A DNA stretch of 64,000 bases from Protoeuglena noctilucae (GCA_958009085.1 OY253682.1:124001-188000), one strand, 5' to 3'. Positions 3,441 through 43,183 are shown, counted from the first letter of the stretch. Program-made: numbers and translations. The notes: a model not told the origin generated them from the sequence alone.

Positions 3441-6400
3441 TCACTTCCCGTACATGGCGTTGAGCTCCTTGAGGTACCTCTTCTTGAGCTGCGGCCGGCG
3501 CAGCTTGAACGTGGGCGTCATGAGGTCGTTCTCGACCGTGAAGGCCTCGGGCGTCACGTGGACCTTCTTGATCATCTCGAAGCCCCGCAGCTTGGCCTCC
3601 CGCCCCGTGGCCTCCAGCTCCTCCATCACCCACTTGTTGGCGGCCGGGTGGGCGCAAAGAGCGGCGAAGTCCCCCTCGATGCCGTTGGATGCGGCCCACT
3701 TCTTGATCGCGCCCTCGCTCGGCACCACCACCGCCACCACGTACGTCTCGGTGGACTGCAAGGGGGGTGGAGAGGGTGGCATTCGGTGTTCTGCAATGAG
3801 ATCATACCAGGTACATCTCCGTAGATTGCAAGGGGGGTGGAGAGGGTGGCACTGAGCGTTCTGCAGTGAGAGCATACCAGCTACGTCTCGGTGGACTGCA
3901 AGTGGTGGCAACAAGAGTGGCAGAAAGGGTGGGAAGGGTGGCAGTCGATGTCTGCAATGATAGCCGACTGGGGTGGCGAGGGTGATAAGGCAATACCAAT
4001 AGCAGGCTCACCTCCCCGTAGACGAAGATCTGGTCCATGTTGGTGTTCTTCTTGAGGGCCGCCTCCACCACCTCGCTCGACACGTACTCCCCCTGCGCCA
4101 GCTTGAACATGTTCTTGGCACGGTCGATGATCTTCAAGGCGCCGTTCTCCTGCACCTCGCCCACGTCGCCCGTGCGGAACCACTCCCCGCTGCGAGGGGT
4201 GGGGGAGGCAAGGGTGAGGGGGCACTGGTACAGGTGAGCGCATGAAAGTATGAAAGTGGTATGGTCGACAGTTGCAGCCAGGACCTCAAGCCAGGCACCC
4301 CCAGCCAACAGCAAACCTCAGCCCACGTAGCCCCACTCACGATCCCCCATGCATCTCACCTGAACGTCTCTGCCGTCTTGGCCTGGTCCTTGAAGTACCC
4401 CGCGAACACCCCCGGCCCACGGAGCAGGATCTCGCCCCTCGGGGGGTCCGCGGTCGCATTGTAGCCCATCTCCGGGAGGCTCTCCAGGCAGAACTCGGTG
4501 CCTGCCGTGGGGAACCCGGCCGTCTGGAAGAAGCCGTCCCAGACCTCGGCGTCGACGAAGGACGCCGCACACGTCTCTGTGAGGGGGATGGGGTGTGGGG
4601 TGGGGGGTGAGGGGTGCGGGAGAGGGTGAGGGTGAGGGCAGGGGGTGGAGGGTGGGGGGTGAGCGGTGAGGGTGAGGGAGGGGGTTGGTGAGGAGGGACG
4701 GGCGCGGAGGGGAGGAGGGTGAGGGGTGAGGAACGTGGATGGCAGGCATCCGTCACTCTTGAGCCCATACCCCTGCACCCACCCTTGACAACACCCTTCA
4801 CCCCTGCCCATGCATCATCCCTCACCCGTGGGGCCGTACCCCTGCACCCACTCTTAGCACCAGTCACCCAAACCCGTTCACCCCTTCCCATACACCATCT
4901 CACCTGTGAGCCCGTACCCCTGCACGAACTTGGCGCACATTGCGACACGCACGAACTCCTCCGTGTGCCTGGCGATAGGCGCCCCGCCGGAGACGATGAC
5001 GCGCACGCGGCCGCCGAGCAGCCCCTTGATCTTGGAGAAGACGATGGTGTCCGCCAGCCACGAGGCGGACTCGACCGGGGCCCCGTCCATCATGAAGGCC
5101 TTCTTGCGGGAGAAGAGCCAGTTGAAGAGGAGGCGGCGGAGGAGGCTCTGCTGCAGGCCCTGCTGCACGCGGGCGTAGATGCGGTCGAACACGCGGGGAA
5201 CGCCCAGGAGCATCGTGGGGCGGAGGGCTGCCAGGTCGTCCATCAGCCCCGCGATGTCGCCGCGCCAGTAGCCGATGGACCCCCCGACGTGCGTGAAGAG
5301 CTCCTCGTTGACCCGCTCGAAGATGTGGGCGAGGGGGAGGTAGGAGATGAGCACGTCGTCCTGGGTGAAGACGAGGTCGGCGCACTGGCGGCTGTGGCAG
5401 ATGAGGGAGTAGACGGTGTGGACGAGCGAGCGATGCGTGAGCATGACGCCCTTGGGGTCGCCCGTAGTGCCCGACGTGTACATGATGGTCGACAGGTCGT
5501 CGGCGGAGGGCGGGGTCGCAGGGGTCATGGACGCCTTGCCCTGCTCGATGAACTGGTCGCAGGAGGCTGCGGGGGGTGAGGGGGAGAATGGTGAGTGCTG
5601 TCATGGTGATCGTTGTCACGAGCAAGCGCAGTCGTGGGCGAGCGTCGTGCAGACGGAGGGTCCACAGCGACCGCACGCAGCACGCAGCACATTGCCTTTG
5701 ACAAGACTGTCTAGTACGAGCGTCACATCGCCAGCCACGCACCCGTCTTGAGCGTGGAGGGGACCTTGGCGATCTCCTCCGCGGACGCGCTGCCCCAGTA
5801 TACCACGGTGGTCACGCCCGTCTTGGGCAGAGCGGCGGCCAGGGCACCAAGCTTCTTAGAGGACACGAACACCGCCTTGGCCTCCGAGTGGCTCAGAATG
5901 TACTCGGCGGCGTTGGGGCCAAGTGACTCGTAGACTGGGGGGGTGGACAGAGGGAGGGACTGGTGGGTTGTGGGGCAGGGGACGGGGGAGGTGGGAGGAG
6001 TTGTGACGCAATGTGCAATACGCCTGGATGTGCATCCCATGCGGGGGCGCTCGCGTGGCACAGTCGGCATGCTATCAGTGCGTCATGTGACGTTGGCCCA
6101 GCGTGAGCGGCCGGTGCTGCATGGCTGCATGGCTCACCGGGCACGCAGACGAGGCCCATGCGGTTGCAAGCCTGCATGGCCATCAGCCACTCGGGGGCGT
6201 TGGATCCGAAGATGCCGACCTGCGGGGGAACTGCCGAGGGCGATTCTGCAGCGGGGCTGCGGGGACCGGGGCCGCGGGGCTGCCCCTGTCGCGCCCACCC
6301 ACCTTGTCGCCCTTTTTGACGCCAGCGGCCGCGAGCGCGGAGCCCAGGGCCTCAACCATGGCGAAGACCTCCGAGTACGTGAGCCACGTGTAGGGAGATG

Positions 6401-39153: not shown

Positions 39154-39318
39154 GCGTGTGCGGCGCCTGATTTGCGCCTGCGACCCGACCCCCATGGTGA
39201 ATGTCAGTACCAGTGGGGGCGCGCAGGCACATGCTTAGGGCGCCGCGAGTGCGTCTGCGGTGCCCTGATTAGCGGCCGTCACGGGCCGAGGCCTCGGGCC
39301 GCGCGATTTTCGGCACCG
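39154..39318 (-). ncRNA. Box H/ACA snoRNA, two hairpins; 5' pocket fits LSU CUUGAUU-U-UGAUUUUC, 3' pocket orphan
   Basis: Stems CGGUGCC/GGCACCG and GCGGCGCC/GGCGCCGC; pocket GAAAAUC...AAUCAG 14 nt from AGA; terminal ACA at 39157-39159. Confidence 0.75.
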
Positions 39319-39479
39319 GAAGGGGCGTGGGGCAAAGTTGGCGACAAAGGGGATAGCCCAGATGACGACAGCACAGCAAACCTAGTTGCAAATGGTGAGC
39401 CGGCATGGTAACAACCGTGAGCCCTAACCGCGCATGACACGAACACCTTCATGCACAAAACAACCCATAAAACCCAAAA

Positions 39480-39583
39480 CCCTCGAGGCCTCAGACCCTT
39501 AGATTCGCCATCAGATTGCGCTCAGGTGCACTTTCGAGCTCTTAGGTCTAGCGTGCGGGTTTTTTCATCAGCGGCCTCGAGGG
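39480..39583 (-). ncRNA. Box C/D snoRNA; D guide AUCUAAGGGU fits 18S GCCCUUAGAU
   Basis: 11-bp terminal stem CCCUCGAGGCC/GGCCUCGAGGG; C box UGAUGA (39565-39570), D' CUGA (39522-39525), D CUGA (39491-39494). Confidence 0.85.
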
Positions 39584-39917
39584 TGGGGGTGGGGGTGGGG
39601 TGGAAAGGAAGGTGGGGGTGTGGGGGGCTGGGCTATGTAACTCATCTGAGCAATGCATGGCATGCTGCGGCCACCGACTTGCATAACATGATGTGTCTCA
39701 CCTGGGGCGGCTGGGGTGGCTGGGCAGCTTGATGGTGAGCTTCAAGTTAGGCAGCTTGGCGTGCGCCACCACTGTAGCAGTGGAGCTGGGCCTCTTGCCT
39801 GAGTTGATGCCTGCACCTGGGGGAGGGAGGGACAAAGGAGCGTTGCTTTCTCAAGCGCAGCAGTGTGCTCGCGACAGGCCGAGCGCGGCTGGGCGCAACT
39901 GGGCTAGGATGCGCGTG

Positions 39918-40073
39918 GCGTGTGCAGCCATCAATTCGCCGGCCCTCAGGGGGATCGGGCAGGCGACTCAACAGGCCCGCTTGGATGTATGCCCTATGGG
40001 GCCCCCACTGGCGCAAGGGCGGCCCCAAAGATGCCGCCTTGGGGACGCCGGCGCCGTGGGGGAAGTACGGGCA
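39918..40073 (-). ncRNA. Box H/ACA snoRNA; 3' pocket is snR36/SNORA36-like (18S UUAAUU-U-GACUCAACA), 5' pocket fits 18S GGGGC-U-CGAAG
   Basis: Pockets UGUUGAGU...AAUUGA and CUUC...GCCCC, each 13-14 nt from an ACA; terminal ACA at 39921-39923. Confidence 0.8.
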
Positions 40074-40220
40074 GTTTGGCGACTTAGCGCAGAAACAAGA
40101 GAGCATTCGAAAGCAAATGGCAGTGGAAAGCGGAGGCGAGAAGGAGGTAGGTGGGGAAGCTGCAGCATGGCGGCATGCGTGGGATCCATGATATACAAGA
40201 GTGGGAAACAAAACACGGCC

Positions 40221-40320
40221 CCGTGCTCGGCGCTTCTTAGAGGGTATACTTTTTTTGATCCCCACGGGCCGGAGCCCACTCGGAGGATTGACAGATAAAA
40301 AGTGGGTCGTCACGGCACGG
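40221..40320 (-). ncRNA. Dual-guide box C/D snoRNA (U61/SNORD61-like D guide plus snoR14-like D' guide)
   Basis: Stem CCGUGC/GCACGG; C box GUGACGA; D' guide AUCUGUCAAUCCU+CCGA (18S AGGAUUGACAGAU); D guide CCCUCUAAGAAGC-G+CCGA (18S GCUUCUUAGAGGG). Confidence 0.9.
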
Positions 40321-40363
40321 GGCTTGGGGTGAAGGCGGAACAGGCAAACGAGGTGTCAACAAA

Positions 40364-40449
40364 GGCTCTCGGGAAGGACCCATTTCCAAATCACTCGGGT
40401 CATACGGCACTTCCTATACAGCGTAAAGGGTTTCTCTCGTCCTCGAGCC
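40364..40449 (-). ncRNA. U49: Box C/D snoRNA U49 (SNORD49) homolog
   Basis: Stem GGCUC/GAGCC; C box AGGACGA; signature guide AUAGGAAGUGCCGU followed by D' AUGA; D box CCGA. Confidence 0.85.
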
Positions 40450-40660
40450 GCGGGCGCGCAGGGACAGGGGTTTGCAACTGGAAAGGATGCACTCAGGGAA
40501 ACAGGACCCGCGTGCTGCTTGACCCCAGTGGGTGGCTCACCTGACGCTGGCGTAGTGAGTGAAATTCGGACCCTTGACATCGACCGTGGCAGCTCGAGAT
40601 GGTAGACGGTAGGCATGCTCAGCGTCCGCCTGTCAGCTACGTCCTGCGTGGGAGAAATAC

Positions 40661-40802
40661 AGATGTCATGGCTGATAACGGCACTGGCAACAGCCACGGC
40701 GGGGCTTGGCCAGCTTCCTGGGCCAAGGGGTTTGGTCTGCGCAATTTTCTGGACTCCCTGTGTCATCAGCCGGGGCCTGCACAGGTCGTGGCAAAACTGC
40801 GC
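40661..40802 (-). ncRNA. Box H/ACA snoRNA candidate, possibly U65/snR34/snoR2-related
   Basis: Hairpin GCGCAGUUUU/AAAAUUGCGC, canonical H box AGACCA (40733-40738), 3' stem CGUGGCUG/CAGCCAUG then ACA; CAAGC, GCCAG and GUUAUC are complementary to LSU GAUAACUGGCUUG. Confidence 0.6.
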
Positions 40803-40837
40803 GCGAGAACCGCTGTTGCGGCGCTCCCCACCTAGCA

Positions 40838-40924
40838 ACATCTCGACCAAAAGAGGGCGAGCGGCGGTCGATCCACTGCACGTGCCTGCGGCGAGTTGAA
40901 GAGCGAGGCTCTTCATCCCGATGT
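40838..40924 (-). ncRNA. Orphan box C/D snoRNA candidate
   Basis: Stem ACAUC/GAUGU; C-like GGGAUGA; D-like UCGA; no convincing target recognised. Confidence 0.45.
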
Positions 40925-40958
40925 CCCCGCGCGAGCGCGAGATTGAAAGGAGATGTTG

Positions 40959-41096
40959 AGATGTCTGCGGTGCTTGACACCGGCGGGGCCACGGACGGGG
41001 CAACGCCAGCAACACGACTGCAAAAAAGCTCTCGCACACGAGACAGGGACACGTGCCCTACGGCGAAGCGGCCGTGCCCGGGGTGAGGATGTGTGC
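40959..41096 (-). ncRNA. Box H/ACA snoRNA; 3' pocket snR35/SNORA13-like (18S UUUGAC-U-CAACACG), 5' pocket fits 18S AGACA-U-AGUGAGGAU
   Basis: Pockets CGUGUU...GUCAAG 14 nt from ACA (40962-40964) and AUCCUCAC...UGUCU about 14 nt from AGA (41030-41032). Confidence 0.85.
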
Positions 41097-41269
41097 TGCG
41101 CCGGCGCCGGCGGGCGGAGCGAGGCGCGGGGGGCGCCGGAGCGGCGCACACGCACCTGGGACGATTCCGGTCCACGTCACCCCTGCTGGCGCCGCCTGCG
41201 GGGGCCGGGGAGGCCGGAAGAGGTCGCATCGGTATGAAAAGAGATTGAACTTTCCACTCCCATGAGAGG

Positions 41270-41412
41270 AAGTGTACCAGCGAGACAGGTCAGTGCGCAC
41301 CCACGAAAAGCGGCGTGCACTGGTTTTTGATCTGGTTTCCTGCTCTAAGCCCCCACTGACAGCGCGCCGCAGATTGCGGTCTGCGGACGCCAACGCCTCT
41401 AAATAGGGGCTA
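41270..41412 (-). ncRNA. Box H/ACA snoRNA domain; 3' pocket snR42-like (LSU GAGACAGGU-U-AGUUUU), 5' pocket fits LSU AUGAC-U-GAACGCCUCUAA
   Basis: Stem AGCCCC/GGGGCU, H box AGAGCA (41341-41346), stem ACCAG/CUGGU then ACA (41273-41275); pocket spacing 14-15 nt. Confidence 0.85.
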
Positions 41413-41821
41413 GCGTCTCCCGGCCTCGGCCGGCGGCAGGGACGGCCCACCGGCCGCCGCCGGCCCCGGGACTCGCACCGACGGCGCGGCGGGTCCCCGG
41501 CGCCGGTCCCTGCCTAAGACGATGTTCATCAAACGCATCGCACGCCGGGCATCTCTGAAGGGCGGCTGCCTCACCTCTTTGGCGCTCCGAGGCCCGCCGA
41601 CATCACGGGCGGGGCCCGCGACGGGCTCGGACGACGCTCATGATTAGGGACTTCAGGTAACCCCGCGTGGCGGGCTCTCAAGGGGGGGCGACCGATGACA
41701 CGGCCAGCCTGGCGAGGGTATTCCCCGCAGCCTACCCTCAGCGCGCGGGCGCTTAGCCCCGCTCGCCCGCTCCCGACCCCCCTTTCCAAACCCAACGGGT
41801 AGGCGCCGTCCGCTGGGAGAG

Positions 41822-43183
41822 ATGGATCAGACCGAGAGGGCCTACCAAAAGCAGGTGGGCGGCGGGCCCAGGGATGCTCGGGGGCGCCCCGAGAGCCGCT
41901 CCCGGGGGATCGCGGCGACGAATGCGCCGAGGCGACCCTCCTCCACCCGCAGGTGGGGGTGAACGTGGGCTTCCGCAAGCCCACGAAGAGGGTGCCGGGC
42001 AAGTATGGCCTGAGGTACTACAAGAACGTGGGGCTGGGCTTCTCTACGCCCAAGGAGGCCATCGAAGGTGGGGCGCGCGTCACCGTGGCGCCGGCGTCGC
42101 GCTGGGTCCCCGGTCCTGGCGCCTGTCGCTCCGCGCCGGTTTTCGATGGTGCCTTGCGGTTTCTTTACCTTATTCGCCTCCCAGCGTATCTCCTTGAGCG
42201 CTCTGGGACGCGCGCCGGGCCCTGGACGAGGCCAGAGCGCTTCCAGGGTCCGGGCATGCCCGGCAGGCCCATTTGGTTGCCCGTGCAGCCGCCAGGATGC
42301 ACTGGGGATGCCGCGGTCTGCTCGGGCGGCCCGACTTGCGACCTGGGGGGCCGGAGGACGGCCACGGCCATCCCACGCGTCCCTGGCCCGCTGCTGGGAT
42401 TTCCTGGCCTGTTGTCAGGGGTTTGGCCGCTCCCCGAATGACCTTACTTGTCGTTTGTCCCGAGACCATGCGCGGCGCCCCGTGTCCGCGGCTTTGAGGC
42501 GCAGGGAGTCTCGCCGTAGGCTGGCCAGCCGACCGGCTCTGTGGCTGCGCGACTTTCGCGCCGGTGCTCGCATCGCCGTGCTCCCTGACCTTCGCTGTGC
42601 GCCTCACGTATCTGGACGCCGCTGCGTGCCCCCCGCAGGGAAGTACATCGACAAGAAGTGCCCCTTCACCGGCAACGTGTCCATCCGCGGCCGCATCATG
42701 ACGGGGGTGGTCAAGTCGACCAAGATGAACCGCACCATCATCGTGAAGAGGTGCGGGCGCGCGGGGCCGCCCGGCCACGGCGACGGCCGGGGCTCTTGGG
42801 GCGCTGCGAGGGCTGCGAGCGTCGGCTGACCTCTCTCCGACCACCGCGCACCTGCCTTCGCACCGCAGGGAGTATTTCCACTTCGTCCGGAAGTACCAGC
42901 GGTACGAGAAGCGCCACTCCAACACCCCCGCGCACGTCTCGCCGTGTTTCCGTGTGCGTGAGGGCGACACGGTCACCATCGGGGAGTGCCGGCCGCTGTC
43001 CAAGGTGCGTCTTTGCATCTGCTGCGCAGTTCCGGTCACCGGCCGGAGCTCCAGGAGCGCACGGACGCTGCACATGCATGCATCGACCGCTCTCCGGTGT
43101 CGTGGCTCCCGCAGACGGTCCGCTTCAACGTGCTCCGCGTGACGCCCGCCTCGGGCGCCAAGAAGGGCTTCTCCGGCTTCTGA
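41822..43183 (+). CDS. RPS11: 40S ribosomal protein S11 (uS17), 5 exons
   Basis: [11 protein letters not shown]|...[38 protein letters not shown]...|...[31 protein letters not shown]...F then TGA. Confidence 0.97.

Follow-up and report, generated by a model that had tools for sequence, protein, structure and literature searches.

A box H/ACA snoRNA with two LSU rRNA guides in a putative first intron of Protoeuglena noctilucae

Introduction

Where motifs of the C/D type occur on both sides of a box H/ACA unit, one must ask whether all of these elements belong to a single RNA. This question is raised by a locus on the minus strand of Protoeuglena noctilucae (GCA_958009085.1 OY253682.1:124001-188000; the whole stretch analysed, 64,000 nucleotides, is called the window here), in which a two-hairpin H/ACA unit lies between a C-box-like motif and a D-like motif. 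A preliminary description of the locus took these elements together as one candidate composite C/D-H/ACA RNA carrying three rRNA guides. In the present analysis, we consider the H/ACA unit and its C/D-like surroundings separately, with respect to fold, rRNA complementarity, conservation among metagenome relatives and coverage in RNA libraries. We regard it as highly probable that positions 41270-41412 of the minus strand encode a conventional intronic box H/ACA snoRNA that guides modification of LSU rRNA, and that its C/D-like surroundings are ordinary intron flank.

Anatomy of the H/ACA Unit

The preliminary description had recognised a complete two-hairpin H/ACA unit at 41270-41412, and the fold, the H box, the ACA box and the spacing of the pockets all agree with it. 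The parts of this unit are as follows, in the order of transcription.

41270 to 41412, minus strand: box H/ACA snoRNA of ~141-143 nt, comprising hairpin 1, H box, hairpin 2, and ACA plus 3 nt
41392 to 41401, minus strand: 5' pocket strand of hairpin 1, UAGAGGCGUU, pairing with LSU AACGCCUCUA over 10 bp
41357 to 41360, minus strand: 3' pocket strand of hairpin 1, GUCA, pairing with LSU UGAC, 14 nt before the H box
41341 to 41346, minus strand: H box AGAGCA (fits ANANNA), between the hairpins, by direct reading
41323 to 41327, minus strand: 5' pocket strand of hairpin 2, AAAAC, pairing with LSU GUUUU
41281 to 41290, minus strand: 3' pocket strand of hairpin 2, ACCUGUCUCG, pairing with LSU UGAGACAGGU by 9 Watson-Crick pairs and 1 G-U
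41273 to 41275, minus strand: ACA box, then 3 nt (CUU), by direct reading

Hairpin 1 begins with a 9-bp lower stem, which is followed by the pocket and the upper stem. The lower stem of hairpin 2 is ACCAG/CUGGU, and the ACA (41275-41273) stands directly after CUGGU, with three nucleotides beyond it. This placement of the ACA is constant in the orthologs, but it is fixed there by the search pattern, and the 3' end of the RNA is itself a prediction. The terminal loops of the two hairpins are CCGCAA and GCUUUUCGUG. As a rule, 14-16 nt separate the target uridine of an H/ACA guide from the box, H or ACA, that follows. The 3' pocket strands start 14 nt upstream of the H box in hairpin 1 and 15 nt upstream of the ACA box in hairpin 2, the latter distance being made up of the pocket strand and the 5-nt lower stem. 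When folded, a 151-nt stretch around the core yields the two hairpins at -64.3 kcal/mol (z -2.55), a value reached by 3 of 200 shuffled sequences. Given this z, together with the rRNA targets and the covarying orthologs described below, the H/ACA unit stands beyond what chance would provide.

At gathering thresholds, Rfam returned no matches anywhere in the window, whether to snRNAs or to other families. With E values of up to 10, searches of 40900-41900 and of 41262-41420 assigned no H/ACA family to the core, and produced for it only spurious hits such as DnaX, M23 and similar families. Since even these permissive searches gave no H/ACA match, the RNA lies outside every curated family; it is a new, uncurated box H/ACA snoRNA that carries two LSU guides. 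Nor was a paralog found within the window, where BLAST of intron 1 against the remaining sequence returned the self-match and short matches of 10-17 nt only.

LSU rRNA Targets of the Two Pockets

For the rRNA side of the comparison, eukaryotic LSU sequences were drawn from public contigs. The pocket pattern of hairpin 2 retrieved 37 loci from a viral-contig collection, of which two carried LSU fragments according to Rfam, and a 29-nt stretch from one of these fragments identified 41 eukaryotic rDNA contigs, present as contaminants in bacterial and archaeal assemblies. Three complete LSUs are included among the 41 (L188, at 3103 bits, L184 and L202). Other probes of the viral contigs were less productive: an LSU 5' primer gave 4 loci, only one of them with LSU (103 nt), a second LSU primer gave none, and the target motif of hairpin 1 gave 43 loci, none of which was rRNA.

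The target motif of hairpin 2 lies inside sequence that Rfam scores as eukaryotic LSU, at 126.8 bits in one contig (L014) and at the above 3103 bits in L188. Here hairpin 2 pairs over 10 bp (UGAGACAGGU, with one G-U) and 5 bp (GUUUU), on the two sides of an unpaired UA. Hairpin 1 pairs over 4 bp (UGAC) and 10 bp (AACGCCUCUA) around an unpaired UG, for a total of 14 pairs against the 15 of hairpin 2. In 33 of the 41 LSU 3' loci, the site of hairpin 1 is found 131-134 nt downstream of that of hairpin 2. A 13-nt core of the hairpin 1 target, CTGAACGCCTCTA, is present in 34 of these loci and the full 16-nt target in 15. By virtue of these pairings and of the matches at the rDNA loci, both pockets are accounted for by the 3' domain of LSU rRNA, and the earlier proposal that both pseudouridylation guides fit LSU rRNA stands, with 15 and 14 bp at sites ~135 nt apart. 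We take the hairpin 2 site to correspond to the region beside A2602/2605-2606 of E. coli 23S rRNA; its uridine would presumably be the counterpart of the yeast pseudouridine for which snR42 is the guide, and we assume that it adjoins the peptidyl-transferase centre.

Relatives and Covariation

A metagenome scan was performed with 18 nt of hairpin 2 as the query (3' pocket strand, lower stem and ACA), and returned 82 loci. Hairpin 2 recurs in 63 of these, which form 13 sequence groups: 52 loci with a recognisable hairpin 2 fall into 12 groups, and a thirteenth consists of 11 further loci that have a long insertion in the upper stem, with the lower stem and pocket as in the window. The other 19 loci appear unrelated. 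On the 5' side of hairpin 2, CCAG and AAACCA are invariant in all 18 aligned representatives, and both elements were outside the search pattern. In the upper stem, 93% of cells in the 18-sequence alignment pair, vs. 24-56% when the partner strand is slid, and changes on both sides are seen in 6 of the 10 pairs; the observed covariation score was matched by none of 500 shuffles. The check on relatives that the preliminary description had called for thus finds a covarying upper stem in hairpin 2, among distant metagenome relatives and on the basis of 18 sequences.

When the 52 loci were compared with the window by BLAST, similarity was restricted to 41266-41335. The relatives are accordingly distant ones, as it is only hairpin 2 that aligns. 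While the 3' hairpin is kept, the 5' hairpins vary among groups, and only one locus found (L063) shares both pocket pairs with the window. This locus has the 5' pocket strand of hairpin 1, UAGAGGCGUU, and the same 14-nt spacing. Its hairpin 1 stems, for which it is the only comparator, are of wholly different sequence yet still pair.

The Host Gene and its Intron Tails

Three features of the surrounding gene are needed for what follows.

41196 to 41574, minus strand: putative intron 1 (GUGAGG ... CGCAG), 379 nt, by direct reading
41098 to 40959, minus strand: H/ACA snoRNA of intron 2, scoring 28.4 bits with Rfam snoR134 (threshold 40)
41241 to 41249, minus strand: 9-mer UUCAAUCUC, overlapping the proposed methylation guide, with its only other window copy at 40939-40947

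The location of the H/ACA unit in intron 1 of a host gene, as had been described, is supported by direct reading, in which this looks like a first intron. Exon 2 is 40 nt long, and exons 1 and 2, when joined by direct reading, contain a short ORF only. Further downstream, the host gene holds additional H/ACA-like units and a clear C/D snoRNA (39586-39475). Exons for ribosomal protein S11 (Pfam Ribosomal_S17_N) are found on the plus strand from ~41995, which, given the minus-strand placement of the host gene, arranges the two genes head to head.

Two marine metatranscriptome runs from one study contain 62-68% of the sampled words of 41190-41580. Contigs assembled at a depth of 3-5 cover 41309-41632, 41219-41451, 41502-41706, 40963-41195 and 40885-41133. 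The first of these spans the predicted 5' splice site together with the C box, and the second spans the ACA box and CCGA. No spliced joint occurs among the contigs of either run at this depth. One contig has its end precisely at 41195, where exon 2 is predicted to begin; this is a weak hint of the 3' splice site. The interval 39481-40884 is without contigs in both runs, and run X7 yielded no contig whatever, though such gaps are not evidence of absence. The bridging contigs fit precursor RNA or DNA carry-over as their source; they are no proof of transcription, and are uninformative as to mature ends or a ~310-nt species.

The tails of introns 1 and 2 have features in common that invite a separate explanation. 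The 3' end of the H/ACA unit lies 73 nt from the end of intron 1, and by direct reading the tail between snoRNA and predicted 3' splice site measures 72-73 nt in both introns. Each tail carries one copy of UUCAAUCUC, at 44 and 53 nt before the respective predicted splice sites. The 9-mer occurs twice in the 64 kb (both strands), compared to an expectation of 0.11, and two copies were reached in none of 100 shuffles; each copy lies 3' of the H/ACA snoRNA in one of these two introns, within its flank, and a one-mismatch copy of the overlapping 10-mer UCUCUUUUCA adjoins the second. It is conceivable, albeit rather doubtful, that this pyrimidine-rich element acts as a signal at the level of the intron. 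Candidates for such a role are a branch-site region, an element for snoRNP assembly or processing, or the remnant of a tandem duplication of an H/ACA snoRNA together with its intron tail, any of which is compatible with a plain H/ACA snoRNA in intron 1. Against a signal, the motif has a copy number of only two, it is missing from the much shorter tail of the putative third H/ACA intron, and it is not seen in the flanks of the orthologs.

C/D-Like Motifs in the Intron Flanks

The elements that had been assigned to a C/D wrapper around the H/ACA unit are the following.

41526 to 41532, minus strand: C-box-like UUGAUGA towards the 5' end of the intron, regarded as a chance occurrence
41413 to 41525, minus strand: GC-rich 5' intron segment (described as a multi-stem domain), without sign of selected structure
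41235 to 41244, minus strand: proposed methylation guide UCUCUUUUCA, complementary to the Rfam LSU consensus at about model positions 377-386, at chance level
41229 to 41232, minus strand: D-like CCGA (the canonical form is CUGA), by direct reading

Read together with the H/ACA unit, they would make up one ~310-nt composite C/D-H/ACA RNA (41537 to 41224), specific to this lineage, similar to U85 in layout, and directed at rRNA by a methylation guide and two pseudouridylation pockets, with UUGAUGA and CCGA forming a kink-turn. We consider such an RNA very improbable. The C-box-like motif has a perfect UGAUGA core with U at the R position of RUGAUGA. Alone among the C/D elements, the TGATGA core is uncommon by itself, occurring 17 times in 128,000 positions (64 kb, both strands), and the chance of one copy in the 161-nt 5' flank, as calculated from this base rate, is ~2%. 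Of the three minus-strand copies in the host gene, one is part of an H/ACA-like stem at 40768; chance copies therefore do arise in this gene. The motifs UUGAUGA (41532-41526) and CCGA (41232-41229) are indeed found on the minus strand where they had been reported. The D box, however, is not the canonical one, as the 3' flank of the H/ACA unit has no CUGA and only CCGA. A terminal stem is possible beside the boxes, and was already conceded to be weak: the best version has 4 bp (2 Watson-Crick and 2 G-U) at a 2-nt offset, and at least 4 bp were obtained in 44% of 5000 shuffles. By comparison, 12 Watson-Crick pairs close the terminal stem of the host gene's genuine C/D snoRNA (39586-39475). Internal C'/D' boxes that flank the H/ACA insertion are a defining feature of U85-type composites, and between the C box and the H/ACA unit there is neither a CUGA nor a second UGAUGA with which to form them. 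U85-type scaRNAs also have a CAB box (ugAG) in the terminal loops of their H/ACA hairpins, as described in PMC4041459, and UGAG is found in neither hairpin loop here.

The third guide had been proposed on the basis of UCUCUUUUCA. The 10-mer is present at its reported place, ends 2 nt upstream of CCGA such that the +5 spacing rule for box D is satisfied, and matches the Rfam LSU consensus. Its length, however, is at chance level: when the 73-nt 3' flank was shuffled 300 times, perfect rRNA complements of at least 10 nt arose in 29-34% of cases, and the real flanks hold other complements of 11 and 12 nt to a reference rRNA. The 12-nt complement is located just downstream of the C box and matches L188 only, within a stretch specific to that LSU; it was set aside as chance. 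Of the three complete LSUs, not one contains an exact target for the 10-mer, and two have one mismatch at the homologous site. The 10-mer itself is in none of the ortholog loci that extend far enough. It also overlaps the 9-mer shared with intron 2, an intron that has no TGATGA. As a control, the genuine C/D snoRNA of the host gene perfectly matches a conserved SSU site over only 9 nt; complementarity length is thus a poor discriminator, and the boxes and stem weigh more.

With respect to conservation, TGATGA was absent at -330 to -135 in all 52 ortholog loci and in the 11 further loci, two of which were too short. The C box and the guide are likewise missing from L063, the locus with both H/ACA guides, in which a 5' splice-site-like GGUAAGU occurs only ~30 nt upstream of the H/ACA unit. 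We also considered whether L063 might be a composite in its own right, in view of a UGAAGA at -236 and CUGA at +62 and +70, near the spacing in the window. This candidate was rejected, with stems of 2-3 bp, an unrelated guide, and the GGUAAGU between its would-be C box and the H/ACA unit. Failure to find the C and D boxes in relatives had been named beforehand as an outcome that would count against the composite, and this is the outcome among distant relatives; a lineage-specific composite would escape detection, because all of the relatives found are distant. In the RNA libraries, contigs cover the whole of the proposed composite, though they extend past both of its ends, and one overruns the 5' end by 95 nt into exon 1. 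Taken together, the C/D parts around the H/ACA core look no better than chance: the D box departs from the canonical form, shuffles often give as good a stem, C'/D' boxes are lacking, and neither C box nor guide is present in the ortholog loci that extend far enough. Neither the wrapping of the unit by C and D boxes nor the triple-guide hybrid built upon it is sustained, the latter failing on the D box, stem, C'/D' boxes, CAB box and conservation alike.

The GC-rich segment between the C box and the H/ACA unit provides no further argument for a composite. Its fold is no better than that of shuffled versions (z -1.41; 21 of 200 do as well), the GC content being 72-74%, and it resembles neither the flanks of the orthologs nor the remainder of the window. 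Two GC stems had been quoted for it. In the first, GGCAGGGAC (41514-41506) does oppose GUCCCUGCC (41442-41434) on the minus strand at the reported place. In the second, the partner was misread by one base: CCGGGGAC faces GUCCCGGGG and not GUCCCCGG, and the helix is consequently imperfect.

A related idea, that an ancient LSU-directed H/ACA snoRNA has in this lineage become wrapped in a degenerate C/D motif to give a ~310-nt nucleolar hybrid, strikes us as even less probable. If true, fibrillarin and Cbf5 would be bound to one RNA, which would direct two pseudouridines and one 2'-O-methylation in LSU rRNA. Such an RNA would be without precedent both as a C/D-H/ACA composite aimed at rRNA and as one from outside animals, and would imply that composite C/D-H/ACA RNAs are not confined to the modification of snRNAs in Cajal bodies, but the evidence does not favour it. 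Least likely of all is that intron 1 encodes, besides the H/ACA snoRNA, a second RNA of ~110-130 nt that is C/D-like or otherwise structured. This RNA would run through the GC-rich segment, with the C box (41532) at one end and a second CCGA (~41425) at the other, and a CCCGGC/GCCGGG helix would close it. In its favour, there is the C-box core, this CCGA does lie ~105 nt downstream of it by direct reading, a 6-bp GC helix is possible between 41549-41544 and the bases just after the second CCGA, and several snoRNAs per intron are known from Chlamydomonas (as cited in PMC7671301). Against it, the segment has no CUGA, no Rfam match, no similar ortholog flank and a fold at the z of -1.41 given above, the helix is 11 nt from the C box and of a kind expected at this GC content, and the GGCAGGGAC/GUCCCUGCC stem would sequester the supposed guide.

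Proposed Processing and Modification

For the conventional H/ACA snoRNA, a simple pathway can be outlined by analogy with other intronic guides. Once intron 1 of the multi-snoRNA host gene has been spliced out, debranching would free the RNA (~141-143 nt, from 41412 to 41270 on the minus strand), and exonucleases would probably trim it back as far as the Cbf5/Nop10/Nhp2/Gar1 proteins bound to it. Hairpin 2 would then direct pseudouridylation in the LSU 3' domain, at the second U of ...GAGACAGGU-U-A-GUUUU..., and hairpin 1 would do so ~135 nt further 3', at the U of ...UGAC-U-G-AACGCCUCUA.... The GC-rich segment, UGAUGA, CCGA and the 10-nt rRNA complementarity would all be intron flank and fall outside the mature RNA. 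The anatomy of the unit, the complementarity of its pockets and the conservation and covariation of hairpin 2 are direct observations; by this analogy we infer the processing route, the protein partners and the actual modification of both uridines.

As such, the finding is a routine annotation, that of a dual-guide H/ACA snoRNA without an Rfam family, whose host gene adjoins a ribosomal protein gene. It nevertheless defines a widely conserved 3' hairpin, represented in 13 metagenome groups and aimed at an LSU uridine, and the alignment of hairpin 2 could be the starting point of a new covariance model, to be used on genomes of algae and protists.

Comparison with Known Systems

Human U85 (SCARNA10) is the obvious counterpart for the composite that had been proposed. 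Similar to U85 are the order of elements, i.e., a C-box-like motif, a two-hairpin H/ACA domain, a complementary stretch and an xxGA motif, as well as the overall length of ~310 nt. Unlike U85, the RNA of the window has no UGAG loops, no canonical D box and no C'/D' boxes; moreover, its C/D parts are unconserved, its stem is at chance level, and its complementarity is to rRNA rather than snRNA.

The host gene has several partial parallels. Animals possess non-coding snoRNA host genes of the UHG/GAS5 type, which the putative host gene resembles in having short ORFs only across its first exons. Its apparent succession of short exons, and introns that each seem to carry a snoRNA, also recall the intronic snoRNA clusters of green algae and plants, with at least two H/ACA snoRNAs and one C/D snoRNA in the present case. 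The neighbouring snoRNA of intron 2 resembles plant snoR134 (Rfam RF01430). Polycistronic snoRNA clusters are described for algae in PMC7671301, whereas the host gene here appears to have one snoRNA per intron.

The closest correspondence is with the canonical intronic box H/ACA guides, with which the RNA shares the hairpin-hinge-hairpin-tail architecture, an H box of the form ANANNA, an ACA placed 3 nt before the predicted end, two-part pockets spaced 14-15 nt from their boxes, LSU targets, and residence in an intron of a host gene. It departs from the canonical families in that it matches none of those in Rfam at E values of up to 10. It departs from its own relatives in its combination of two guides, which, among the loci found, is common to the window and L063 alone; the other groups pair the same 3' hairpin with other 5' hairpins. 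Lineages that combine one conserved 3' hairpin with differing 5' hairpins in this manner offer an example of the modular shuffling of H/ACA guides.

Additional snoRNAs in and Around the Host Gene

Beyond the snoRNA of putative intron 1 (the first H/ACA snoRNA), the window holds further snoRNA-like units on the minus strand, together with protein-coding segments:

39475-39586, minus strand: clear box C/D snoRNA
~40660-40880, minus strand: probable third H/ACA snoRNA
40959-41098, minus strand: second H/ACA snoRNA, in the intron that follows that of the first
~41995-42069 and ~42638-42700, plus strand: Ribosomal_S17_N exons (ribosomal protein S11/uS17), by family match
1061-1804 and 4881-5600, minus strand: two AMP-binding ORF segments (Pfam, E 5e-43 and 2e-42)

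The box C/D snoRNA possesses UGAUGA, internal CUGA boxes and a terminal CUGA, closed by a perfect terminal stem of 12 bp, and the guide upstream of its box D matches a conserved SSU rRNA site, CCCUUAGAU, perfectly over 9 nt (reference L188, a genome contig). The probable third H/ACA snoRNA is marked by a 10-bp stem (GGCUGAUGAC/GUUAUCAGCC), after which come AUGACA and 3 further nt. A TGATGA at 40768 falls within this very stem, and C-box-like hexamers therefore arise by chance within the host gene. Additional H/ACA-like units may be present at ~40240-40480 and ~39200-39330.

The first and second H/ACA snoRNAs end at nearly equal distances from their predicted 3' splice sites (73 and 72 nt, respectively). 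Their 3' flanks also hold one copy each of the 9-mer UUCAAUCUC, which occurs just twice in the window (41241-41249 and 40939-40947, minus strand) where 0.11 copies would be expected; it could represent a branch-region signal, a processing signal or the trace of a duplication.

Genomic Neighborhood and Sequence Variation

The S11/uS17 exons and the snoRNA host gene are arranged head-to-head, which suggests that the two genes have a bidirectional promoter in common at ~41710-41990. Elsewhere in the window, both AMP-binding ORF segments match an identical portion of the Pfam family, suggesting a tandem duplication of acyl/AMP-ligase genes.

Two contigs from a run of the organism's own data (X3) break at 40257-40260, inside the host gene, each leaving 21-30 loose nucleotides that do not resemble the window; a polymorphic insertion/deletion or a repeat boundary may lie here. 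Separately, one contig of a marine metatranscriptome run (X2; depth ~3) has a plus-strand T for C at 41421. This position precedes the 5' end of the first H/ACA snoRNA by 9-11 nt, and the difference may reflect strain variation or error.

Eukaryotic rRNA in Public Contigs

Eukaryotic LSU rRNA was found on at least 41 genome contigs (L167-L207) labelled as bacterial or archaeal isolates or MAGs, with Streptomyces, Arthrobacter and Halorubrum among the titles of the matches listed; these entries are contaminated public assemblies. In three of the matches listed (L184, L188 and L202) the rDNA unit is complete and contains group I introns. A viral contig of 3711 nt (L014) carries eukaryotic LSU rRNA in its first ~130 nt, the remainder being AT-rich and unrelated, and is either chimeric or a case of an rRNA fragment carried by a virus.

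Metagenomic Orthologs and a Plant snoRNA Family

In six metagenome ortholog loci (L043, L044, L049, L052, L065 and L079), a 5' splice-site-like GGUGCGU lies upstream of the H/ACA unit and comes after the apparent end of a coding exon, while ~60-130 nt downstream of the ACA stands a second conserved block (...CACCCCGGGCGGUG...GUCCCAAGUC...) that is probably another clustered snoRNA. For the second H/ACA snoRNA of the window, the top Rfam match is plant snoR134 (RF01430), below threshold at 28.4 bits vs. 40 (E 0.0012), with an alignment that spans the full length of the model.
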